Origin: Escherichia phage PhiV-1
Reading direction: 5' to 3' (one strand)
Sequence record: MT542512
DNA: 39,461 bases
In this document: positions 424-39,461 of the stretch, piece by piece
How positions within the stretch are numbered: the stretch's first letter is position 1
Layout of the letters: each line of letters opens with the position of its first letter
Program-made: the position numbers and the translations under genes
The notes under the pieces: model-generated
What the model was told of the DNA's origin: nothing
What the model saw: only the letters and a program-made list of their open reading frames with translations
Database searches by the model: none

Positions 424-446
424 TAATGCGACTCACTAATGGGATA
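424..446 (+). promoter_or_regulatory. Phage RNAP promoter (phiOL position)
   Basis: TAATGCGACTCACTAATGGGATA. Confidence 0.6.
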
Positions 447-2981: not shown

Positions 2982-5633
2982 ATGACTAACGTAATCAACG
3001 CACCAAAGAACGACTTCTCTGACATCGCTAACGCAATCCAGCCGTACAACATTCTGGCTGACCATTACGGCGCACAGCTTGCAGCTACGCAGTTACAGCT
3101 TGAGCACGAAGCACACACCGAGGGCGAGAAGCGTTTTCTTAAGGCAATGGAACGTCAAATCAAAGCGGGTGAGTTCGGTGATAACGCAGTGGCTAAACCG
3201 CTCCTGTCATCTCTCGCACCGAAGTTCATCGAGGCGTGGAACACTTGGTTCACCGAGGTGGAAGCGAAGCGTGGCAAGCGTCCAGTAGCCTACAATCTGG
3301 TACAGAAGGTTGCACCTGAAGCGGCCGCTTTCATCACACTGAAGGTCACACTCGCTTGCTTGACGAAAGAAGAGTTCACCAACCTGCAATCGGTCGCCAC
3401 TAAGATTGGTCGCAGTATTGAGGATGAACTGCGTTTTGGTCGCATCCGTGACGAAGAAGCGAAGCACTTTAAGAACCACGTACAGGAGGCACTGAACAAG
3501 CGCGTTGGTATCGTCTACAAGAAAGCATTCATGCAAGCCGTAGAAGGCAAGATGTTAGACGCTGGTCAACTGCAAACCAAGTGGACTACATGGACACCTG
3601 AAGAATCAATTCACGTTGGTGTGCGCATGTTGGAACTGCTCATCGGGTCTACTGGTCTCGTTGAGTTACACCGACCGTTTGCTGGTAACGTTGAGAAGGA
3701 TGGCGAGTACATCCAGTTAACAGAACAATATGTAGACCTGCTATCCAAACGTGCTGGCGCACTGGCTGCAATCGCTCCGATGTATCAGCCTTGCGTGGTC
3801 CCTCCGAAGCCTTGGACTTCTCCGGTTGGTGGTGGCTATTGGGCTGCTGGTCGCAAGCCTCTCTCTCTGGTTCGCACTGGTAGCAAGAAGGGACTTGAGC
3901 GTTACAACGATGTGTATATGCCTGAAGTCTACAAGGCGGTGAACATCGCACAGAATACTCCTTGGAAGATTAACAAGAAGGTTCTGGCAGTGGTCAACGA
4001 GATTGTGAACTGGAAGCATTGCCCGGTTGAAGATGTTCCTGCTCTGGAACGTGGTGAACTGCCTGTCAAACCTGATGACATTGACACCAACGAGGCATCG
4101 CTCAAAGCGTGGAAGAAAGCGGCCTCCGCAATCTACCGCAAAGAGAAGGCACGAGTGTCTCGTCGTATGAGCATGGAGTTCATGTTAGGTCAGGCCAATA
4201 AGTTCGCACAGTTTAAAGCTATCTGGTTCCCGATGAACATGGACTGGCGCGGCCGAGTGTATGCGGTCCCAATGTTTAACCCGCAAGGCAACGACATGAC
4301 CAAAGGCTTGCTGACGCTCGCTAAAGGTAAACCAATCGGTGTCGATGGGTACTACTGGCTGAAGATTCACGGTGCTAACACTGCTGGTGTGGACAAGGTG
4401 GACTTCGCTGAACGCATCAAGTTCATTGATGACAACCACGAGAACATCATGAGCGTTGCGGCTGACCCGATTGCTAACACTTGGTGGGCTGAACAAGACT
4501 CTCCGTTCTGCTTCCTCGCGTTCTGCTTTGAGTATGCGGGAGTCCAGCATCACGGGATGAACTACAACTGCTCTTTACCGCTGGCGTTCGATGGCTCTTG
4601 CTCTGGTATTCAGCACTTCTCCGCAATGCTCCGCGATGAGGTCGGTGGTCGTGCGGTTAACCTGCTTCCAAGCAAAGAGGTACAAGACATCTACCGCATC
4701 GTTGCTGAACGTGTGAACGAGATTATGCAACAGGACGTAATCAACGGAACTGATAACGAAGTGGAAACTGTTATCAACAAGGACACTGGAGAAATCACTG
4801 AGAAGCTCAAGCTGGGTACGAAGGAACTGGCGGGTCAATGGTTGGCCTACGGTGTGACTCGCAAGGTCACTAAGCGTTCGGTCATGACGTTGGCTTACGG
4901 CTCCAAAGAGTATGGCTTCCGTGACCAAGTTCTTGAGGACACAATTCAGCCAGCTATCGACGATGGCAAGGGCTTGATGTTCACTCAACCGAACCAAGCG
5001 GCTGGCTACATGGCTAAACTGATTTGGAATGCTGTAACGGTCACAGTTGTCGCAGCGGTTGAAGCGATGAACTGGTTGAAGTCTGCTGCTAAACTTCTGG
5101 CTGCTGAAGTCAAGGACAAGAAGACCAAAGAGGTTCTCCGCAAGCGTTGCGCAGTACATTGGGTAACTCCTGATGGCTTCCCTGTGTGGCAGGAATACAA
5201 GAAGCCAGTACAGACCCGCTTGAATCTGATGTTCTTAGGCCAGATTCGTCTACAGCCTACCGTGAACACCAACAAGGATAGCGGGATTGATGCTCGTAAA
5301 CAGGAGTCAGGCATCGCACCTAACTTTGTCCACTCAATGGATGGAAGCCACCTGCGCATGACCGTGGTTCGCTCCAATGAGGTCTACGGTGTGGAATCGT
5401 TCGCACTGATTCACGACTCCTTTGGTACTATCCCTGCTGATGCTGGCAACCTGTTTAAAGCAGTGCGTGAAACGATGGTCAACACTTACGAAGAGAACGA
5501 TGTACTTGCAGACTTCTATGAGCAATTTGCTGACCAGTTGCACGAATCACAGCTTGACAAGATGCCTGAGATGCCAGCTAAAGGTTCTCTGGACCTGCAA
5601 GAAATCCTTAAGTCAGACTTTGCGTTTGCCTAA
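2982..5633 (+). CDS. 1: Single-subunit DNA-dependent RNA polymerase
   Basis: 883 aa; co-linear with T7 RNAP as recalled; motifs LAFDGSCSGIQH and HDSFGT; specificity loop R746/N748/R756/Q758 identical to T7. Confidence 0.98.
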   Translation: MTNVINAPKNDFSDIANAIQPYNILADHYGAQLAATQLQLEHEAHTEGEKRFLKAMERQIKAGEFGDNAVAKPLLSSLAPKFIEAWNTWFTEVEAKRGKRPVAYNLVQKVAPEAAAFITLKVTLACLTKEEFTNLQSVATKIGRSIEDELRFGRIRDEEAKHFKNHVQEALNKRVGIVYKKAFMQAVEGKMLDAGQLQTKWTTWTPEESIHVGVRMLELLIGSTGLVELHRPFAGNVEKDGEYIQLTEQYVDLLSKRAGALAAIAPMYQPCVVPPKPWTSPVGGGYWAAGRKPLSLVRTGSKKGLERYNDVYMPEVYKAVNIAQNTPWKINKKVLAVVNEIVNWKHCPVEDVPALERGELPVKPDDIDTNEASLKAWKKAASAIYRKEKARVSRRMSMEFMLGQANKFAQFKAIWFPMNMDWRGRVYAVPMFNPQGNDMTKGLLTLAKGKPIGVDGYYWLKIHGANTAGVDKVDFAERIKFIDDNHENIMSVAADPIANTWWAEQDSPFCFLAFCFEYAGVQHHGMNYNCSLPLAFDGSCSGIQHFSAMLRDEVGGRAVNLLPSKEVQDIYRIVAERVNEIMQQDVINGTDNEVETVINKDTGEITEKLKLGTKELAGQWLAYGVTRKVTKRSVMTLAYGSKEYGFRDQVLEDTIQPAIDDGKGLMFTQPNQAAGYMAKLIWNAVTVTVVAAVEAMNWLKSAAKLLAAEVKDKKTKEVLRKRCAVHWVTPDGFPVWQEYKKPVQTRLNLMFLGQIRLQPTVNTNKDSGIDARKQESGIAPNFVHSMDGSHLRMTVVRSNEVYGVESFALIHDSFGTIPADAGNLFKAVRETMVNTYEENDVLADFYEQFADQLHESQLDKMPEMPAKGSLDLQEILKSDFAFA

Positions 5634-5640
5634 CGGAATC

Positions 5641-5663
5641 TAATACGACTCACTAGTGGGAGA
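5641..5663 (+). promoter_or_regulatory. Phage RNAP promoter (phi1.1A position)
   Basis: TAATACGACTCACTAGTGGGAGA followed by AT-rich ctttaag x3 region. Confidence 0.7.
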
Positions 5664-5723: not shown

Positions 5724-6281
5724 ATGTTTACTTTCATCACTTCAGTAGGCGCTCTCGTATCAACAATTCTTGCAGCAACATACTATAATCGTTCAAAGGT
5801 ATTTCTCACTAAGCTAATCAAAGAAGAGAAGAACTCTCATGCACTCAAAGAGAGACTTGAAGATGGATGGCGAGAGAAGCAGGAACTAGCTGGTCGAATC
5901 CGTACCTTAGAGTTCGAACAACAATACGACATGTCGAACCAACGAGAACTCATTGAGCGTCTACGCGCTGAGGCAGTGGAGTACCGCAAGGAACTTAAAG
6001 AGGCAAAGAGTACCATCCGTGAGTACACTCACAGTGACATCACGTCTATCAAGTTTACCGCTCACATCCCGGATGCTGGGTGGAAGCGCACTGAGTTCAA
6101 GCTGGGTATAGGGTCTTGTGGCAAAGAGGTTACATGTTTGCACTGGAAAGAACAGTCGGACCGCTATCTGCTGACACAGACGTGCACTGACGGTGAGCGC
6201 AAAGAGTTCACCTATTATAAGAAAGATGTAGCTGGTCGCATTGAGATTGCACGTAAGGTTGCAGACAATACGACTCACTAA
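5724..6281 (+). CDS. Hypothetical membrane-anchored coiled-coil protein (T3 gene 1.05 position)
   Basis: 185 aa from ATG 5724 with RBS gagga and tttaactttaag enhancer; the track ORF start at 5667 lies inside the promoter; N-terminal TM helix, central coiled coil, Cys-containing C-terminus. Confidence 0.6.
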   Translation: MFTFITSVGALVSTILAATYYNRSKVFLTKLIKEEKNSHALKERLEDGWREKQELAGRIRTLEFEQQYDMSNQRELIERLRAEAVEYRKELKEAKSTIREYTHSDITSIKFTAHIPDAGWKRTEFKLGIGSCGKEVTCLHWKEQSDRYLLTQTCTDGERKEFTYYKKDVAGRIEIARKVADNTTH

Positions 6282-6288
6282 TGGGAAA
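6266..6288 (+). promoter_or_regulatory. Phage RNAP promoter (phi1.1B position)
   Basis: CAATACGACTCACTAATGGGAAA; overlaps stop codon of upstream ORF. Confidence 0.7.
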
Positions 6289-6522: not shown

Positions 6523-6794
6523 TGGGTCGCTTATATAGTGGTAACTTAATGGCGTTAAAGGATGTCATCGAGAGACTTAAAGAAGACCACGATGTCAGTG
6601 TTGTAACTGAGACTTTCCGCTATGAGAACTACGCACAGCGCCGATGGGTCTCCGGTGAGACTCTCCGCATTGTTCTACGCAATGGCCTCGTACTGACATC
6701 CAAGTGTTTCGAACAGTCAGACGAAGATGTCCGGTGCAATGCACAGACTGAGTGGCTCCGCAAGGTACACGCAGACCTGAAGCACTGGAAGTAA
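6522..6794 (+). CDS. 1.2: Inhibitor of host dGTP triphosphohydrolase
   Basis: 90 aa; MGRLYSGNL... N-terminus and DEDV...W...DLKHWK C-terminus as in T7 gp1.2. Confidence 0.8.
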   Translation: MGRLYSGNLMALKDVIERLKEDHDVSVVTETFRYENYAQRRWVSGETLRIVLRNGLVLTSKCFEQSDEDVRCNAQTEWLRKVHADLKHWK

Positions 6795-6814
6795 TACGAC
6801 TCACTAATGCGAAA
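6792..6814 (+). promoter_or_regulatory. Phage RNAP promoter (phi1.3 position)
   Basis: TAATACGACTCACTAATGCGAAA (C at +2). Confidence 0.6.
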
Positions 6815-7940: not shown

Positions 7941-7975
7941 GGTCAGTCCTTAGCGGGGCTGGCCTTTTGCGTTTC
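7941..7975 (+). terminator. Intrinsic terminator for host RNAP (TE position)
   Basis: ggtcagtcc-ttagc-ggggctggcc hairpin followed by ttttgcgtttc, immediately after ligase as in T7. Confidence 0.5.
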
Positions 7976-7997
7976 TATACGACTCACTATGGAGGAA
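7975..7997 (+). promoter_or_regulatory. Phage RNAP promoter, variant (phi1.5 position)
   Basis: CTATACGACTCACTATGGAGGAA. Confidence 0.5.
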
Positions 7998-8004
7998 CAA
8001 CCTC

Positions 8005-8085
8005 ATGCTATTTCTTATTGCTGCTGTTATCTTTGCCACGTTTGCCTTCGTTATCATTGACGACAACTGCTGGCCTGATTGCTAA
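8005..8085 (+). CDS. Tiny hydrophobic ORF (26 aa)
   Basis: GGAGG RBS 8 nt upstream; MLFLIAAVIFATFAFVIIDDNCWPDC; sits between two promoters. Confidence 0.2.
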   Translation: MLFLIAAVIFATFAFVIIDDNCWPDC

Positions 8086-8105
8086 TACGACTCACCTATG
8101 GAGGA
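8083..8105 (+). promoter_or_regulatory. Phage RNAP promoter, variant (phi1.6 position)
   Basis: TAATACGACTCACCTATGGAGGA. Confidence 0.5.
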
Positions 8106-8862: not shown

Positions 8863-9054
8863 ATGAGCACTCTGAATAAAGGGTCACTCGTAAACGGTGA
8901 CAAGAAGTTCTTCGCAACGGTCGAAGGCCAAGGCCAATCGTTCGAAGTCCCTGTGTTCGCTGCGTCTCTTGAAGAGGCAAACGAGTTAGCTGAATGGCAG
9001 TATGTTCCGGCTGGCTTCGCAGTGACACGCATCCGTCCAGACCGAAAGGTTTAA
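8863..9054 (+). CDS. 2: Inhibitor of host RNA polymerase
   Basis: 63 aa; FEVP...[18 protein letters not shown] matches T7 gp2 as recalled. Confidence 0.85.
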
Positions 9055-9074
9055 TAGGACTCACTATTGGGAGA
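9052..9074 (+). promoter_or_regulatory. Phage RNAP promoter (phi2.5 position)
   Basis: TAATAGGACTCACTATTGGGAGA. Confidence 0.65.
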
Positions 9075-10723: not shown

Positions 10724-10813
10724 ATGATGATTATTCATGAGATGGGAATGTACGATATGATTTACCGCTGTGTATTCGTTCTGGCATTGACCTATATCTT
10801 AACTCGTAAGTAA
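10724..10813 (+). CDS. Tiny ORF (29 aa)
   Basis: MMIIHEMGMYDMIYRCVFVLALTYILTRK; below track threshold. Confidence 0.2.
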   Translation: MMIIHEMGMYDMIYRCVFVLALTYILTRK

Positions 10814-10833
10814 TAGAACTCACTATGGGAGGA
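10811..10833 (+). promoter_or_regulatory. Phage RNAP promoter, variant (phi3.8/4c position)
   Basis: TAATAGAACTCACTATGGGAGGA. Confidence 0.5.
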
Positions 10834-10883
10834 CCGAAAGGTTTCTCCCTTTGTTCGCTAAAATTGTATAAGGAGTAACCACT

Positions 10884-12695: not shown

Positions 12696-12718
12696 CAATA
12701 GAACTCACTAATGGGACA
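12696..12718 (+). promoter_or_regulatory. Phage RNAP promoter (phi4.3 position)
   Basis: CAATAGAACTCACTAATGGGACA. Confidence 0.6.
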
Positions 12719-13528: not shown

Positions 13529-13551
13529 CTATTCAACTCACTAATGGGAGA
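13529..13551 (+). promoter_or_regulatory. Phage RNAP promoter (phi4.7 position), degenerate upstream half
   Basis: CTATTCAACTCACTAATGGGAGA. Confidence 0.5.
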
Positions 13552-13559
13552 ACAATACT

Positions 13560-13976
13560 ATGCGTAATCGTAATGTAATCGAAGCTGAAATCGCTAAACT
13601 GGAAGCTGAACTGGCAGATGTTAAAGAGTATGACTGTGCTCGTGACTCCGCTGTCCACATCCTGAAGAACTTAGGGTGGACCCGCAAGTATGGCAAGTGG
13701 GTCAAACCAGTAGCCAACTGTGGTAGCGTTGGTATGCAGACTTTCGACGCAGACAAGATGACCCACATTAAGGCTGGGGACTTCTGCACCTCCACCAGCA
13801 ACGCAGACATTTGGTATGTCCGTAAGGTCGAAGGGACAGACATTTGGTGCTCCCGTGTGACTCGCATTGATGCAATGGGTACAGTCGCTGGGATTCAGTA
13901 CTACAAGATGAACCACAAGAACCTGCGTGTGGTTGACCCTAAGAACTTCATGGGATACCGCAAATCTACATTTTAA
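13560..13976 (+). CDS. 4.7: gp4.7-like protein
   Basis: 138 aa, position and size equal T7 gp4.7. Confidence 0.65.
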   Translation: MRNRNVIEAEIAKLEAELADVKEYDCARDSAVHILKNLGWTRKYGKWVKPVANCGSVGMQTFDADKMTHIKAGDFCTSTSNADIWYVRKVEGTDIWCSRVTRIDAMGTVAGIQYYKMNHKNLRVVDPKNFMGYRKSTF

Positions 13977-13988
13977 GGAGTAAACACA

Positions 13989-16103
13989 ATGTTACTATCC
14001 GACATCGAAACAAACGGGTTGCTGCACAACGTTAGTCAATTTCACTGTGCGGTGACTTACGACTACACAACTGACCAGTACATCCGTTACCGACCTGATG
14101 ACTTTGGGGCGTACATTGATGCACTCGAAGCCGAGGTTGCTCGTGGTGGTCTCATTGTGTTCCATAACGGTCACAAGTATGACATCCCGGTAATCGAGTT
14201 GCTCGCCAAGAAACTGTTAGGCCGCGACGTTAAGTTCCCGAAAGAGAACGTACTGGATACCCTCGTGATGTCCCGCTTGATTTACTCTAACATCAAAGAC
14301 ACCGATGCTGGTCTGCTGCGTTCTGGCAAGCTGCCGGGTAAACGTTTTGGTTCCCACGCTCTGGAGGCTTGGGGTTATCGCTTAGGCGAAATGAAGGGTG
14401 AGTACAAGGACGACTTCAAGGCTTCACTGGCTGAGTCTGGTGAAGAATATGTTGATGGTATGGAATGGCTCCTGTTCAACGAAGATATGATGGAATATAA
14501 CGTTCAAGACGTTGTAGTCACCAAGGCTCTCTTCGAGAAACTTTGTAGCAACACATTCTATTTCCCTAACGAGACACCCGCTGGAAGCACAGAAGCAGAC
14601 CGTTTCTGGAATGGTAGCCTTGAGGCTGTTAAACTGGAACATGATGCTGCATGGTTGTTAGCCAAGATGGAACGTAACGGTTTCCCGATTGACATTAAGT
14701 CTCTTGAGAACCTGTACGCAGAACTCGCTGGTAGACGTGGTGAGCTACTCGTAGAGTTAACCAATACGTTTGGCTCATGGTACTCCGCTAAGGGCGGTAC
14801 TGAAGCATTCAGACACCCTCGTACCGGAAAGCCGCTCACCAAGTATCCTCGTGTTAAGTACCCGAAACAGGGTGGCATCTTTAAGAAGCCTAAGAACAAG
14901 AAGCAACGTGAGGGATTAGAGCCGTGCGAGTTGGATACCCGCGATTACGTTGAGGGTGCTCCGTATACTCCGGTTGAGCACGTTGTGTTTAACCCTGCGA
15001 GCCGAGACCACATCACCCGTGTTCTCACCAAGGCTGGTTGGGTTCCCGTTGAGTTCACCCCAAGTGGTGCACCAAAGGTAGACGACGAGGTCTTAGAGCA
15101 CGTTAAGGTAGACGACCCTGATGCACAGCGTTGCATTGAGTTGATTAAAGAATACCTTATGATTCAGAAACGTATCGGTCAGGTTGCTGAGGGTGATAAC
15201 GGCTGGCTCCGAATGATTGGAGAAGATGGTCGTATTCACGGAAGCGTTAACCCGAACGGTGCGGTAACTGGTCGTGCAACTCATAGTTTCCCTAACGTGG
15301 CACAGGTGCCTTCAATCCGTGCTGCATATGGCGAACCTTGCCGTGCTGCTTTCGGTGCCGAGCACAACATGAAAGACGGTAAGCCAGACCCTTGGATTCA
15401 AGTTGGTGTGGATGCGTCCGGCCTTGAGCTACGATGCTTAGGTCACTTCATGTATCGCTATGATGAGGGAGAGTACGTTGAGACTATCCTCACTGGTGAC
15501 ATCCATACGAAGAACCAATTGGCTGCTGGTCTGCCAACTCGTGACAACGCTAAGACGTTTATCTATGGGTTCCTCTATGGTGCTGGCGCTGCGAAGATAG
15601 GACAGATTGTTGGTGGTACTGCCGAAGACGGTAAGCGACTCATCAAGAACTTCCTTGAGCAAACTCCGGCTATCGCTGCATTACGTGAGGCCATTACAGG
15701 TACTCTCGTCAAGGACTCTAAGTGGGTTGGCGGTGAACAGAAAGTAACTTGGAAACGCCGTTGGGTTCGTGGATTGGATGGTCGTAAAGTACACGTCCGT
15801 AGTCCTCACGCTGCGTTGAACACCTTGTTGCAGTCTGCTGGTGCTCTGATTTGTAAACTGTGGATTGTCGAGACTGAACGACTGTTACTGGAAGCTGGCC
15901 TGAAGCATGGCTGGGATGGTGACTTTGCGTACATGGCATGGGTTCACGACGAAATACAGGTCGCTGCAAGGACTCAAGAGATTGCCGATAAGATTGTCGA
16001 GTTGGCACAGCAAGCAATGCGTAATGTGGGAGACCACTTTAACTTTAGATGTCAGTTAGATACCGAAGGTAAGACTGGCGCAAACTGGAAGGATTGTCAC
16101 TAA
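13989..16103 (+). CDS. 5: DNA polymerase (family A) with 3'-5' exonuclease domain
   Basis: 704 aa; DIETNGL exo motif, thioredoxin-binding loop (FGSWY..KGGTE.F.HPRTGKP..KYPR.K.PK.GGIFKKPKNK), YGFLYGAG, HDEIQV; strong match to recalled T7 gp5. Confidence 0.98.
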   Translation: MLLSDIETNGLLHNVSQFHCAVTYDYTTDQYIRYRPDDFGAYIDALEAEVARGGLIVFHNGHKYDIPVIELLAKKLLGRDVKFPKENVLDTLVMSRLIYSNIKDTDAGLLRSGKLPGKRFGSHALEAWGYRLGEMKGEYKDDFKASLAESGEEYVDGMEWLLFNEDMMEYNVQDVVVTKALFEKLCSNTFYFPNETPAGSTEADRFWNGSLEAVKLEHDAAWLLAKMERNGFPIDIKSLENLYAELAGRRGELLVELTNTFGSWYSAKGGTEAFRHPRTGKPLTKYPRVKYPKQGGIFKKPKNKKQREGLEPCELDTRDYVEGAPYTPVEHVVFNPASRDHITRVLTKAGWVPVEFTPSGAPKVDDEVLEHVKVDDPDAQRCIELIKEYLMIQKRIGQVAEGDNGWLRMIGEDGRIHGSVNPNGAVTGRATHSFPNVAQVPSIRAAYGEPCRAAFGAEHNMKDGKPDPWIQVGVDASGLELRCLGHFMYRYDEGEYVETILTGDIHTKNQLAAGLPTRDNAKTFIYGFLYGAGAAKIGQIVGGTAEDGKRLIKNFLEQTPAIAALREAITGTLVKDSKWVGGEQKVTWKRRWVRGLDGRKVHVRSPHAALNTLLQSAGALICKLWIVETERLLLEAGLKHGWDGDFAYMAWVHDEIQVAARTQEIADKIVELAQQAMRNVGDHFNFRCQLDTEGKTGANWKDCH

Positions 16104-16330
16104 TGGCTTGGTTATATAGAATACGTGAAGTTAGACTTACTACAGGAGAGACACTCTACTACCCTCAATTCCGCCACAAGTGGTTACCGTTTTGGTGCCA
16201 CTTCCGGGATTATTCAAATGAGAACAAAGTGTCATTCACTTATTACTCTGAAGCTGTCAACTTTGTTAACGAGTCGAAAGCAAATGACGAACCTGAAGTT
16301 AAACAGGTTGTCCGTAATCACTATCTTTAA
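16103..16330 (+). CDS. Hypothetical protein (gene 5.3 position)
   Basis: 75 aa from ATG 16103 overlapping gene 5 stop; the track ORF starts at an upstream TTG. Confidence 0.45.
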   Translation: MAWLYRIREVRLTTGETLYYPQFRHKWLPFWCHFRDYSNENKVSFTYYSEAVNFVNESKANDEPEVKQVVRNHYL

Positions 16331-16345
16331 TAGGAGACATACATC

Positions 16346-16630: not shown

Positions 16631-16839
16631 TGGGTGAATATCTACGTGTACTGGCGGCTATCAAAAGCTGCCCTAAGACCTTTCAGTCGAACTATGTGCG
16701 CAACAATGCGTCACTGGTGGCTGAGGCTGCGAGTCGAGGTCATATCTCTTGCCTATCAGTCGATGGGCGTAATGCTGGCGCTTGGGAAGTAACAGGCGCT
16801 GGTGTCCGATTCCTGAAGAAGATGGGAGGTTGCGTATGA
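16630..16839 (+). CDS. 5.7: gp5.7 protein
   Basis: 69 aa; YL.VL.AIKSCPKTFQSNYVRNNASLVAEAASRGHISCLS.DGRN near-identical to recalled T7 gp5.7. Confidence 0.8.
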   Translation: MGEYLRVLAAIKSCPKTFQSNYVRNNASLVAEAASRGHISCLSVDGRNAGAWEVTGAGVRFLKKMGGCV

Positions 16840-17021
16840 GTCTGCACACAGACAACGTTACAGTGACCCGTGAGGCGTGGAACGACATGCAGTCGTACAT
16901 CCAGTCACTGGAGAAGAAAGCTGAGAAGCTGGACGCTCTGGAGGCTGGAGGTGTGGACAATAGGTCCGGCTACTGGTTCTCTCTGGAAGAGGCTGGTCTC
17001 ACAGGGGAGGACGACTTATGA
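16836..17021 (+). CDS. 5.9: gp5.9-like protein (RecBCD inhibitor in T7)
   Basis: 61 aa from ATG 16836 (RBS gggagg); ..R..WNDMQSYIQSLEKK resembles T7 gp5.9; acidic. Confidence 0.6.
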   Translation: MSLHTDNVTVTREAWNDMQSYIQSLEKKAEKLDALEAGGVDNRSGYWFSLEEAGLTGEDDL

Positions 17022-18023: not shown

Positions 18024-18046
18024 CAATACGACTCACTATGGGAGAG
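18024..18046 (+). promoter_or_regulatory. Phage RNAP promoter (phi6.5 position)
   Basis: CAATACGACTCACTATGGGAGAG. Confidence 0.65.
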
Positions 18047-18099
18047 GGGTGCCTATATGATACCTACTTTAAGTTCTAACTTTAAGGAGAACATCTATT

Positions 18100-18975: not shown

Positions 18976-20583
18976 ATGGCAAGCTCACAGAAACGTGAAG
19001 GCTTCGCGGAGAATGGTGCCAAGGCGGTGTATGACGCATTGAAGAACGACCGGAACTCCTACGAGACCCGTGCGGAAAACTGTGCGAAGTACACCATCCC
19101 TTCGTTGTTCCCTAAAGACTCCGACAACGCCTCTACTGACTACACCACTCCGTGGCAAGCAGTTGGCGCTCGTGGCTTGAACAACTTGGCCTCTAAGCTC
19201 ATGCTCGCTCTGTTCCCTATGCAGACTTGGATGAAGCTGACCATCTCTGAGTTCGAAGCGAAACAATTGGTTGCACAGCCAGCCGAACTAGCGAAGGTCG
19301 AAGAAGGTCTCTCAATGGTCGAGCGAATCTTGATGAACTACATCGAGTCCAACTCGTACCGTGTGACACTCTTTGAGACCCTCAAGCAGTTGGTCGTTGC
19401 AGGTAACGCTCTGCTCTACATTCCTGAACCTGAAGGTGCTTACAATCCCATGAAGCTATACCGCCTGTCTTCTTATGTTGTCCAACGAGACGCATTCGGC
19501 ACGGTGCTACAGATTGTAACCTTAGATAAGACTGCCTATGCAGCACTTCCAGAAGACGTGCGAAACGCTATGGACTCCGGTCAGGAACATAAAGGCGACG
19601 AAATGATTGATGTGTACACTCACATTTATCTTGACGAAGAATCAGGAGAATACCTCAAGTACGAAGAGATTGATGGTGTTGAAGTCGATGGTACAGATGC
19701 TTCTTATCCGGTGGACGCTTGTCCTTATATCCCGGTTCGCATGGTACGCATTGATGGAGAATCATATGGTCGTTCTTACTGTGAGGAATACTTAGGTGAC
19801 TTACGGTCCCTTGAGAACCTTCAGGAAGCTATCGTTAAGATGTCAATGATTAGTGCAAAAGTTATCGGCTTGGTTAACCCGGCTGGTATCACACAGGTTC
19901 GTCGTTTGACCAAAGCACAGACAGGTGACTTCGTGTCCGGTCGTCCAGAAGACATCTCGTTCCTTCAGCTTGAAAAGGCCGCTGACTTCTCTGTAGCGAA
20001 AGCTGTGAGTGAACAGATTGAGGGCCGACTGTCCTATGCCTTTATGCTGAACTCCGCTGTGCAACGTACTGGTGAGCGTGTGACTGCTGAAGAGATTCGA
20101 TATGTCGCATCTGAACTCGAAGATACCCTTGGTGGTGTCTATTCGATTCTCTCACAGGAACTTCAGTTGCCAATGGTTCGTGTCCTGCTGAAGCAACTTC
20201 AAGCAACCAATCAGATTCCTGAGTTACCGAAAGAGGCCGTTGAGCCTACTATCAGTACCGGGATGGAAGCATTGGGTCGTGGTCAAGACCTCGATAAGCT
20301 GGAACGTTGTATTGCTGCGTGGTCTGCGCTGGCTCCTATGCAGAATGATCCTGACATCAACATTGCGACCATTAAGTTGCGCATTGCGAACGCTATCGGC
20401 ATCGACACTTCTGGTATCCTCAAGACACCTGAAGAGAAACAACAGGAGATGGCTGAGGCTGCTCAAGGCACTGCTCTGGAGAACGCTGCTGCGTCTGCTG
20501 GTGCTGGTGCTGGTGCACTGGCTACTGCAAGTCCTGAGAACATGGAAGCTGCGGCTGCACAGGCTGGTATGGTTCCTAATTAA
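18976..20583 (+). CDS. 8: Portal (head-tail connector) protein
   Basis: 535 aa; strong match to recalled T7 gp8. Confidence 0.97.
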   Translation: MASSQKREGFAENGAKAVYDALKNDRNSYETRAENCAKYTIPSLFPKDSDNASTDYTTPWQAVGARGLNNLASKLMLALFPMQTWMKLTISEFEAKQLVAQPAELAKVEEGLSMVERILMNYIESNSYRVTLFETLKQLVVAGNALLYIPEPEGAYNPMKLYRLSSYVVQRDAFGTVLQIVTLDKTAYAALPEDVRNAMDSGQEHKGDEMIDVYTHIYLDEESGEYLKYEEIDGVEVDGTDASYPVDACPYIPVRMVRIDGESYGRSYCEEYLGDLRSLENLQEAIVKMSMISAKVIGLVNPAGITQVRRLTKAQTGDFVSGRPEDISFLQLEKAADFSVAKAVSEQIEGRLSYAFMLNSAVQRTGERVTAEEIRYVASELEDTLGGVYSILSQELQLPMVRVLLKQLQATNQIPELPKEAVEPTISTGMEALGRGQDLDKLERCIAAWSALAPMQNDPDINIATIKLRIANAIGIDTSGILKTPEEKQQEMAEAAQGTALENAAASAGAGAGALATASPENMEAAAAQAGMVPN

Positions 20584-20603
20584 TACGACTCACTAATGGG
20601 AGA
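20581..20603 (+). promoter_or_regulatory. Phage RNAP promoter (phi9), perfect local consensus
   Basis: TAATACGACTCACTAATGGGAGA; overlaps gene 8 stop; transcript 5' end can fold gggagagacactacgtcctccc. Confidence 0.75.
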
Positions 20604-21574: not shown

Positions 21575-21597
21575 TAATACGACTCACTATTGGGAGA
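21575..21597 (+). promoter_or_regulatory. Phage RNAP promoter (phi10)
   Basis: TAATACGACTCACTATTGGGAGA; 5' hairpin gggagagacattacgttctccc. Confidence 0.75.
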
Positions 21598-22891: not shown

Positions 22892-22933
22892 AAACCCCTT
22901 GGGTGCCTTCGCGGGTGCTTGAGGGGTTTTTTT
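22892..22933 (+). terminator. Tphi-like late terminator
   Basis: aaccccttgggtgccttcgcgggtgcttgaggggttttttt; G-U containing hairpin plus U-tract, resembles T7 Tphi. Confidence 0.7.
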
Positions 22934-22940
22934 CGTACCA

Positions 22941-22963
22941 CTAATAGACTCACTAATGGGAGG
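22941..22963 (+). promoter_or_regulatory. Phage RNAP promoter, variant (phi11 position)
   Basis: CTAATAGACTCACTAATGGGAGG. Confidence 0.5.
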
Positions 22964-22971
22964 AAATCACT

Positions 22972-23562
22972 ATGCGTTCCTATGAGACTACCCTAGAGAC
23001 TGGCGAAGAGTTGGCTGCGGTAAATGACATCTTGGCCTCTATCGGTGAACCACCTGTGTCCACTTTGGAAGGTGATGCTAACGCCGATGTTGCCAATGCT
23101 CGTCGAGTTCTCAATAAGATTAACCGACAGATTCAGTCCAAGGGTTGGACGTTCAACATTGAGGAAGACCAACAGTTGCTACCTGATGTGTTCAACGGAT
23201 TGATTCCTTATATGTCCGACTACCTGTCTGTGATGACACCGGGAGGCGCTACTGCCTATGTCAACCGGGGTGGTTACGTGTTTGACCGGACTACTGGAAC
23301 TGACGTGTTTAAAGAACCAATCACTGTGACCATTATCAAGCTGAGAGAGTTCTACGAGATGCCTGAATGTTTCCGCTTCTGGATTGTCACCAAAGCTGCC
23401 CGTCAGTTTAACAACAGGTTCTTTGGTGCTCCCGAGATTGACGCAGTGTTAGCTGAAGAAGAACAAGAAGCAAAGATGCAGTGTCACGAGTATGAACTGG
23501 ACTTTGGTAACTTCAACATGCTTGATGGTGATGCCTTCACTGGCGGTCTGCTATCTCGCTAA
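22972..23562 (+). CDS. 11: Tail tubular protein A
   Basis: 196 aa; [47 protein letters not shown] as in T7 gp11. Confidence 0.95.
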
Positions 23563-25966: not shown

Positions 25967-25993
25967 ATGAAACACCCCGACTCAATAAGTGAA

Positions 25994-26016
25994 CAATACG
26001 ACTCACTATTGGGAAG
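25994..26016 (+). promoter_or_regulatory. Phage RNAP promoter (phi13)
   Basis: CAATACGACTCACTATTGGGAAG. Confidence 0.7.
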
Positions 26017-26042: not shown

Positions 26043-26456
26043 ATGCTAATAATCAGACCTACTAAAGAATCAGACTTTGCTAGGTTCACTCCGTCACCTG
26101 AAGACATCGCTGAGGCAAAAGCCTATGGCATTGAACCTTCATTTCCACCAGCTAACGAGTGCGTCACTATGTCACTTCATGGTATGCCCGTGGCTATCGG
26201 TGGTAATTGTGGCGACCAAGTGTGGTTCGTAACGTCCGCTCGTGTTTGGAAACTAAGTATGAAGACCCGAAGAGAGTTCCGAAAGCTCATTCTGGAGTAT
26301 CGTGATACCATGCTCAAACAGTATCCGATTATCTGGAACTACGTTTGGGTCGGCAACAAGTCCCACATTAGGTTCTTGAAGTCTATTGGTGCGGTGTTCC
26401 ATAATGAGTTTACTGGTGACAGTAATCAATTCCAACTATTCACTATAGGAGGTTAA
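26043..26456 (+). CDS. 13: Internal virion protein A
   Basis: 137 aa at gene 13 position. Confidence 0.75.
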   Translation: MLIIRPTKESDFARFTPSPEDIAEAKAYGIEPSFPPANECVTMSLHGMPVAIGGNCGDQVWFVTSARVWKLSMKTRREFRKLILEYRDTMLKQYPIIWNYVWVGNKSHIRFLKSIGAVFHNEFTGDSNQFQLFTIGG

Positions 26457-33333: not shown

Positions 33334-33356
33334 CAATACGACTCACTAATGGGAAG
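33334..33356 (+). promoter_or_regulatory. Phage RNAP promoter (phi17)
   Basis: CAATACGACTCACTAATGGGAAG; 5' hairpin gggaaggctcacacagcttccc. Confidence 0.7.
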
Positions 33357-38845: not shown

Positions 38846-38868
38846 TAATACGACTCACTATTGGGAAG
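38846..38868 (+). promoter_or_regulatory. Phage RNAP promoter (phiOR position)
   Basis: TAATACGACTCACTATTGGGAAG followed by cttaaag repeats. Confidence 0.7.
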
Positions 38869-39429: not shown

Positions 39430-39461
39430 TCTCATAGTTCATACAAAGTGTTTCCCCCCCC
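39430..39461. repeat. Probable physical left genome terminus / start of terminal repeat (TCTCATAGTTCA...)
   Basis: tctcatagttcatacaaagtgtttcccccccc resembles the conserved T7/T3 genome 5' terminus. Confidence 0.45.

Follow-up and report, generated by a model that had tools for sequence, protein, structure and literature searches.

The RNA polymerase (RNAP) of phage T7 binds its promoters from -17 to -5 and melts them from -4 to -1, and the non-template strand is dispensable to it from -4 onward (PMC11617373). Its AT-rich recognition loop binds the minor groove of -17 to -13, its intercalating hairpin (residues 232-243) opens the duplex at -5/-4 while V237 stacks on -5, and R425, R632 and H784 hold the initiating GTP (PMC11617373). 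Within the specificity loop, base contacts run from N748 to -10/-11, from R756 to -9 and from Q758 to -8 (PMC5937735), while R746 contacts the conserved C at -7 (PMC11880802). When 4750 RNAP-promoter pairs from 840 genomes were subjected to direct-coupling analysis, strong coupling was confined to the specificity loop, at residues 746, 748, 756 and 758 (PMC11880802). Among relatives of T7, the Kvp1 paper presents promoter logos and finds the Kvp1 promoters closest to those of phage Berlin (PMC2579914). Here we analyse the 39,461-nucleotide (nt) sequence of Escherichia phage PhiV-1 (record MT542512), the whole of which we refer to as the window, with emphasis on its gene 1, which encodes a T7-type RNAP, and on 17 promoter sites that differ from those of T7 in the base at -1.

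Promoters of the window differ from those of T7 at position -1

We built a position weight matrix from the 17 sites and ran it over both strands, using as reference the 17 promoters of T7 (NC_001604) at their annotated starts. All sites lie on the + strand and score 25.0-38.2 bits, compared with 5.2 bits for the next-best 23-mer on either strand. They are invariably found at gene boundaries, 13-162 nt from the next open reading frame (ORF) downstream (540 nt for phiOL); 16 of them are positional orthologues of the 16 promoters annotated in phage BA14, and the 17th (22941) is the annotated phi11 of Kvp1. The promoters retain the T7 binding element from -17 to -5 (TAATACGACTCAC) and a G-rich start. 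ACTCAC at -10 to -5 is invariant in all 17, and -11 is G in 14 sites and A in 3. The initial annotation of this sequence had described a single shared 23-mer, which holds as a family resemblance (10 sites within 3 mismatches, with 0 expected in shuffles) and as an exact match only at 20581 and 21575. It had also seen no exact T7 consensus 23-mer, and indeed none occurs on either strand of the window.

The dinucleotide at -2/-1 is AT in 9 sites, TT in 4, TG in 3 and GT in 1; the AT or TT originally reported accounts for 13 of the 17. At -1 the window has T in 14 sites, G in 3 and A in none, whereas T7 has A in 16 and T in 1 (Fisher p = 1.5e-8), and the T7 initiation segment TATA at -4 to -1 is found at 0 of the 17 sites for lack of the A at -1. 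The single -1T promoter of T7 is phi2.5, whose transcript starts with A. At -2 the distributions (A9 T7 G1 in the window, T12 A5 in T7; p = 0.17) consist of A and T in both phages save for one G. The sole categorical promoter difference from T7 is position -1, and the earlier assignment of the difference to both -2 and -1 is narrowed to that extent. Between orthologous pairs of the window and BA14, -2 differs in 4 of 16 and -1 changes once, from T to G; because -1 has been conserved and -2 has alternated between A and T, the state of -1 is probably under selection.

Some sites depart from the common form. Three of them (7975, 10811 and 18024) read CACTATG-G, with either G at -1 or a spacer shorter by one base, and site 8083 reads CACCTAT. 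These four sites are class II-like, with GGAGG among the first transcribed bases 13-16 nt before an ATG, which at the phi1.5-type site lies 13 nt past the inferred start. Site 22941 is one base short in the -13/-12 region; its 23-mer is identical to the annotation 'Kvp1 phi11' and absent from BA14. Two further sequences containing CACTA were rejected as promoters, namely TCCAACTATTCACTATAGGAGGT at 26431, where -9 is T and the T7 matrix gives 5.8 bits, and CACCCCGACTCAATAAG at 25973. A GGAG(G)-type ribosome-binding sequence lies within the first transcribed bases at 7975-8005, 13529-13560, 18024-18057 and 22941-22972, and the leaders of these four promoters run only 13-16 nt to the ATG, like those of the T7 class II promoters phi1.5 and phi1.6.

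Gene 1 encodes a T7-type RNA polymerase

The gene 1 product contains the Pfam domains RNA_pol (PF00940; E = 9.5e-112, 374.5 bits) and RPOL_N (PF14700; E = 6e-22, 78.9 bits), and its best solved relatives, over the full length, are the T7 RNAP structures 1CEZ and 1QLN (1CEZ chain A, residues 3-883, 1563.7 bits). The protein is 99% identical to BA14 gp1 and 76% identical to T7 gp1. Identity to T7 RNAP is unevenly spread, at 64% over residues 1-325 (the N-terminal promoter-binding domain) and 84% over residues 326-883. Relative to T7, the protein gains one residue at the N-terminus and loses one near residue 200, so its numbering equals that of T7 from about residue 201. In the alignment, the catalytic and initiation residues D537, K631, Y639, H784, D812, W422, R425 and R632 are all conserved, as is V237, so that by Pfam domains and catalytic residues alike the protein belongs among the T7-type RNAPs.

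The three promoter-contacting elements differ in how closely they follow T7. The core of the AT-rich loop, AKRGKRP, is equal to that of T7, as is the promoter consensus TAATA at -17 to -13. The intercalating hairpin (residues 231-245) retains V237 and is unlike T7 at 8 of its 15 residues. In the specificity loop the only changes from T7 are I743V, F755I, I761V and E768G. Positions 5217-5255 read in frame R-L-N-L-M-F-L-G-Q-I-R-L-Q, and we verified in the frame of the 883-residue ORF and in the T7 alignment that, as first proposed, the codons for R746 (5217-5219, cgc), N748 (5223-5225, aat), R756 (5247-5249, cgt) and Q758 (5253-5255, cag) specify residues identical to those of T7; in T3, as also first stated, the residue that aligns with T7 N748 is D. 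With these four residues and GACTC at -11 to -7, enzyme and promoters fall in the T7 specificity class. Two substitutions near conserved residues were also observed: Q786M, which adjoins H784, is common to Berlinvirus, L034 (a locus described below) and Helsettvirus and is not present in phage JA10, and Y418M, near W422, is confined to Berlinvirus.

The -1 base is lineage-specific across Studiervirinae

We examined a wider sample of loci comprising 12 Berlinvirus-like IMG/VR loci (91 sites), 15 T7-group loci (155 sites), and the loci L034, L043-L046 and L015/L017. In the Berlinvirus-like loci -1 is T in 72 sites, G in 19 and A in none, and in the T7-group loci it is A in 141 and T in 14, the latter as a single -1T per locus in a TT dinucleotide. 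T at -1 is also found in the annotated promoters of the Helsettvirus fPS-50, in L034, a relative of Erwinia phage pEa_SNUABM_57, and in Dickeya phage JA10 (Ningirsuvirus; promoter CCATGCGACTCACTATTGAGAGA). In a neighbour-joining tree of RNAP, the Berlin, Helsett, Ningirsu and L034 lineages with -1T form one clade, and we therefore count them as one evolutionary event.

Taken across Studiervirinae, the -1 base is lineage-specific: it is A in the T7 group, A or C in phages of the T3 type and of the K11/KP32 type, and T with a minority of G in Berlinvirus, Helsettvirus and Ningirsuvirus. It is A in L046, which has a TATA segment, T or A in L044/L045 (AATTAACTATCACTATTGGCAGA), and C in L043 (IMGVR_UViG_2595698761; TAATAAGACTCACTAACGGGAGA), which has the T7-type residues R746, N748, R756 and Q758 and a GACTCAC core. 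An amino/keto rule for -1 (T/G in the window, A/C in T3 and K11) is suggestive, and we keep it as speculation only; its exceptions are one -1C in JA10, the T of T7 phi2.5 and the mixture of T and A in L044/L045.

A separate feature of L015/L017, which are of the type of Dickeya phage vB_DsoP_JA10, is that the promoters start with CCATG rather than TAATA at -17 to -13. The AT-rich loop of the JA10 type reads SKGGHRP and is without R96 and K98; the changes in this loop and in the upstream element may possibly represent co-variation.

The -1 base probably tunes initiation quantitatively

We consider it likely that the 17 sites serve the gene 1 RNAP as its cognate promoters, middle and late, and that T or G at -1 is a lineage trait that tunes initiation in a quantitative manner without acting as an on/off switch. 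If the biochemistry of T7 is a guide, the enzyme would bind the duplex from -17 to -5 as T7 RNAP does, and its hairpin would open -4 to +2/+3. Transcription would start with GTP at the G that forms the 18th base of each 23-mer, as T7 biochemistry, the alignment and the annotation of relatives together suggest. Position -1 would lie inside the melted initiation segment and outside the part read by the specificity loop, and the most likely effect of T or G there would be to adjust how the cognate enzyme forms the open complex or initiates; a role as an on/off specificity switch is unlikely. The binding region, for its part, is conserved because the specificity loop is conserved.

Scored with the T7 matrix, 16 of the 17 sites reach 21-36 bits, and the promoters of T7 itself reach 26.5-39.9 bits. 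Entries in S2 File of PMC5937735, from a pooled in vitro assay, give T7 RNAP a value of 73.3 on TAATACGACTCACTATTGG (A-1T), compared with 142-188 for five wild-type barcodes, and entries for the T-2A variant in the same assay lie at 138-161. Retention in the high-activity group was 84.8% at -1 and 83.6% at -2, and about 99% at -9 to -7 (PMC5937735). On the strength of the matrix scores, the activities of the A-1T and T-2A variants and the retention figures, we therefore predict substantial cross-recognition with T7 RNAP; use of these sites by T3 RNAP is not expected. The sequence TAATAGGACTCACTATTGG, which relates to the phi2.5-type site at 9052, is a member of the 'high group' of T7 RNAP variants (PMC5937735 S1 Table).

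Several points weigh against this interpretation, however. The T7 activity figure for A-1T, among the entries of PMC5937735 considered here, was obtained with one barcode of a pooled assay. More than 100 sites of the Berlin clade are all without A at -1, so the cognate enzyme seems to care about this base. [quoted passage not shown] The cognate enzyme probably prefers T at -1.

Search for a protein partner of the -1 base

The initial annotation had inferred co-variation confined to the initiation region. The promoter side of this proposal stands, in that the change is real, clade-wide and constrained; no partner was found on the protein side. The specificity codons it cited cannot be the partner of -1 because they are unchanged from T7. 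One may nevertheless postulate that the Berlin-clade RNAP came to favour T or G at -1 (A or C in the template) in a base-specific manner. The changes responsible would lie elsewhere, for instance in the intercalating hairpin, in Q786M or other residues close to the active site, or in the N-terminal domain, and would make -1 a second specificity determinant. In keeping with this scenario, A never occurs at -1 in the 17 window sites and 91 related sites while -2 is free to vary, and the strongest, class III-type promoters are all -1T, which would be odd if the enzyme favoured A as T7 does. The hairpin has diverged from T7 at more than half of its residues, and 72 alignment columns, including hairpin positions 232, 233, 238, 239, 241 and 243, separate the -1T from the -1A lineages; the cross-transcription difference of BA14, as reported in the secondary citation of PMC13600099, would also fit.

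Much of this support weakens when further lineages are considered. The 72 columns are confounded by descent, as the -1T lineages compared form one clade and a single event, and the hairpin candidates among them fail in L043-L046; we therefore discarded the perfectly segregating columns as evidence for a partner. L044/L045 combine -1T with another hairpin (RTHAGQADKD-VNFVS), L043 has -1C together with a GACTCAC core and loop residues of the T7 type, so that no residue code comes out of the comparison, and Q786M is missing from JA10, also a -1T phage. After L043, L044/L045 and L046 were added, no polymerase residue of the hairpin or loop tracked the -1 base across lineages. Moreover, the coupling analysis of 840 genomes placed strong coupling in the specificity loop only (PMC11880802), T7 RNAP keeps about 40% of its activity on A-1T according to the pooled-assay entries of PMC5937735, and T7 RNAP can do without the non-template strand downstream of -5 (PMC11617373). 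Co-variation on the protein side is thus unproven, and we regard this scenario as unlikely.

A stricter form of the proposal, that Berlin-clade RNAPs read the -1 base directly through residues outside the specificity loop, we judge to be rather improbable. The base read would be T/G here and A/C in T7, T3 and K11, and enzymes with identical loop residues and promoters identical from -17 to -3 would be functionally separated. This would account for the difference in BA14 cross-transcription attributed to the 1982 study, and would offer a second, independent handle for orthogonal T7-type expression pairs.

It is also highly improbable, in our view, that the difference at -1 reflects a shifted alignment, with the true start displaced by one base from the presumed +1, for instance onto the T or the second G. 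The three CACTATG-G sites, which have one base less between CACTA and the G-run, and the single CACCTAT site could be read in this way, and two BA14 features were shifted or lengthened by annotators to cope. T7-type enzymes set the start by distance from the binding element, however, and 13 of the 17 sites have exact T7 spacing from the -11 to -5 element to GGGA; the binding element and G-run also align without gaps across T7, T3, K11 and all clades examined. It is scarcely credible that, instead of being promoters of the gene 1 product, the sites match by chance or are repeats serving some other function, given a 20-bit gap to background, their placement on the coding strand and at gene boundaries throughout, and their synteny with annotated promoters of BA14, Kvp1, fPS-50 and T7.

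Genome identity and features of the window

Judged by its sequence, the window is a Berlinvirus genome of the BA14/Kvp1/285P/Berlin group of T7-like Studiervirinae. Over the first 25 kb, nucleotide identity is 93.4% to CarlSpitteler (across 97% of the length) and about 93% to 285P. The whole window is collinear with BA14, with 39.2 kb aligned at 90.4%, and aligns to T7 at about 70%. Gene 1 is 94-95% identical at the nucleotide level to those of PZJ0206, CarlSpitteler, 285P, BA14 and Kvp1, and at most 95.3%. The ICTV genus criterion, as quoted in a passage of PMC13600099, requires a nucleotide identity of at least 70% across the genome, together with collinearity with members, and by this measure the window falls within Berlinvirus. 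Identity of at least 95% to a described phage, the species line, was not reached, the best value being 93.4% over the first 25 kb, with the last 14 kb compared with BA14 and T7 only.

The terminal-repeat sequence is present once. Because bases 4-173 match both terminal repeats of BA14, we read the window as a unit-length genome with a single repeat copy. Runs of eight C stand at both ends (1-8 and 39454-39461), and the window resembles an assembly of unit length, or a circularised one, more than a sequence running from virion end to virion end. The coordinates of gene 1, the promoters and the associated features are collected in Table 1.

Table 1 Features of the window discussed in the text. 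Slashes separate the promoter up to -1 from the initial transcribed bases; bits refer to the matrix built from the 17 window sites unless stated otherwise.
Feature	Position	Strand	Sequence	Basis
Gene 1, T7-type single-subunit RNA polymerase, 883 aa + stop	2982..5633	+		ORF, translation, Pfam, T7 RNAP structures
AT-rich recognition loop codons, residues 94-102 (T7 93-101)	3261..3287	+	EAKRGKRPV (T7 KAKRGKRPT)	comparison with T7
Intercalating hairpin codons, residues 231-245	3672..3716	+	RPFAGNVEKDGEYIQ (T7 RQNAGVVGQDSETIE)	comparison with T7
Specificity loop codons, residues 739-770 (includes 5217-5255)	5196..5291	+		alignment to T7 gp1
phiOL-type promoter	424..446	+	TAATGCGACTCACTAAT/GGGATA	32.1 bits; position of annotated BA14 phiOL
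phi1.05-type promoter, 8 bp past gene 1 stop	5641..5663	+	TAATACGACTCACTAGT/GGGAGA	35.4 bits; BA14 phi1.05 orthologue
phi1.1-type promoter	6266..6288	+	CAATACGACTCACTAAT/GGGAAA	37.9 bits; BA14 phi1.1 orthologue
phi1.3-type promoter, upstream of ligase gene	6792..6814	+	TAATACGACTCACTAAT/GCGAAA	34.6 bits; BA14 phi1.3 orthologue
phi1.5-type promoter, -1 = G, GGAGG in initial transcript	7975..7997	+	CTATACGACTCACTATG/GAGGAA	28.2 bits; BA14 phi1.5 orthologue
phi1.6-type promoter	8083..8105	+	TAATACGACTCACCTAT/GGAGGA	27.3 bits; 23-mer equals annotated BA14 phi1.6
phi2.5-type promoter	9052..9074	+	TAATAGGACTCACTATT/GGGAGA	35.7 bits; BA14 phi2.5 orthologue
phi3.8-type promoter	10811..10833	+	TAATAGAACTCACTATG/GGAGGA	27.6 bits; orthologue of BA14 annotated promoter 10827-10849
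phi4.3-type promoter	12696..12718	+	CAATAGAACTCACTAAT/GGGACA	31.2 bits; BA14 phi4.3 orthologue
phi4.7-type promoter	13529..13551	+	CTATTCAACTCACTAAT/GGGAGA	31.4 bits; 23-mer equals BA14 phi4.7
phi6.5-type promoter	18024..18046	+	CAATACGACTCACTATG/GGAGAG	30.5 bits; BA14 phi6.5 orthologue, there ...CACTATT/GAGAGG
phi9-type promoter, exact fit to initially described consensus	20581..20603	+	TAATACGACTCACTAAT/GGGAGA	38.2 bits; identical to BA14 phi9
phi10-type promoter, exact fit to initially described consensus	21575..21597	+	TAATACGACTCACTATT/GGGAGA	38.0 bits; identical to BA14 phi10
Tphi-type terminator, hairpin and T-run after gene 10	22906..22935	+		aligns to annotated BA14 terminator and T7 Tphi region
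phi11-type promoter, weakest site	22941..22963	+	CTAATAGACTCACTAAT/GGGAGG	25.0 bits; 8.7 bits with T7 matrix
phi13-type promoter	25994..26016	+	CAATACGACTCACTATT/GGGAAG	36.5 bits; identical to BA14 phi13
phi17-type promoter	33334..33356	+	CAATACGACTCACTAAT/GGGAAG	36.8 bits; BA14 phi17 orthologue
phiOR-type promoter	38846..38868	+	TAATACGACTCACTATT/GGGAAG	36.6 bits; identical to BA14 phiOR

Further observations concern gene content and the regions around individual promoters. The phi11-type promoter (CTAATAGACTCACTAATGGGAGG) lies 5 bp past the Tphi-type terminator, with the ATG of gene 11 following after 14 nt; CarlSpitteler, vB_CECAV_058, Carena and JSS1 match this region at 95-99% identity, and the BA14 spacer there is TTTTTTCGCTACAACAGGAGG. 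The endonuclease-like extra gene of BA14, gp2.8 (L001 14102-14536, between genes 4.7 and 5), is absent from the window, where the end of gene 4.7 (13976) is followed closely by the start of gene 5 (13989), leaving no BA14-type insert. Between genes 5 and 6, the stretches 16104-16332 and 16840-17017 are unaligned to BA14, with small ORFs at 16094-16330 and 16782-17021, and the gene 5.5 region between these stretches is only about 78% identical to BA14. Upstream of gene 0.3 (start 981), sigma-70-like promoter matches occur at 667-695, 763-792 and 925-954, where BA14 has annotated early promoters for the host RNAP; the count of such matches is not significantly above that in shuffles (4 found, 2.5 expected).

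Comparison with known systems

The -1T pattern is already known, since it is annotated in the records of BA14, Kvp1 and fPS-50; in a full-text literature search, the two consensus 23-mers and shorter forms of them were printed in no paper found. The significance of our analysis therefore lies mostly in annotation, as a Berlinvirus genome is identified and its polymerase gene and 17 promoters are fixed. More widely, T7-type enzymes with the same loop employ lineage-specific -1 bases (A, T or C), and to our knowledge the design of T7-based expression systems has made little use of -1 as a variable.

The closest systems are those of BA14 (EU734171), 285P and Kvp1 (FJ194439), all Berlinvirus, which have RNAPs 99% identical to that of the window and the same gene order. 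BA14 also has the same CACTA[AT]TGGGAGA promoter consensus, for example in phi9 (TAATACGACTCACTAATGGGAGA) and phi10 (TAATACGACTCACTATTGGGAGA). Nucleotide identity to these three phages is nevertheless only about 90-93%, and individual promoters vary in their initial transcript and at -2; at -1 of phi6.5 the window has G and BA14 has T. BA14 further differs from the window in being without phi11 and in carrying its extra endonuclease-like gene.

T7 (Teseptimavirus) resembles the window in the length of its RNAP (883 residues), in its catalytic residues, in R746, N748, R756 and Q758 and in AKRGKRP, as well as in a promoter consensus that is equal at -17 to -3 and +1 to +4 and in the number (17) and placement of its promoters. 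It differs in an RNAP that is 76% identical, in a diverged hairpin, and in having A at -1 where the window has T or G. T3 (Teetrevirus) shares the architecture and the CACTA box, and we take it to have a phi11 promoter as well, but it has D at the N748 position, CCCTCAC at -11 to -5 and AA or AC at -2/-1.

In the RNAP tree, Helsettvirus (Yersinia phage fPS-50) and Ningirsuvirus (JA10) are sister lineages; they have -1T and share with the window both R746, N748, R756 and Q758 and an RP[FY]AG hairpin. Their RNAPs are 83% (fPS-50) and 75% (JA10) identical to that of the window, and JA10 stands apart in promoters that start with CCATG instead of TAATA and in an AT-rich loop that has neither R96 nor K98.

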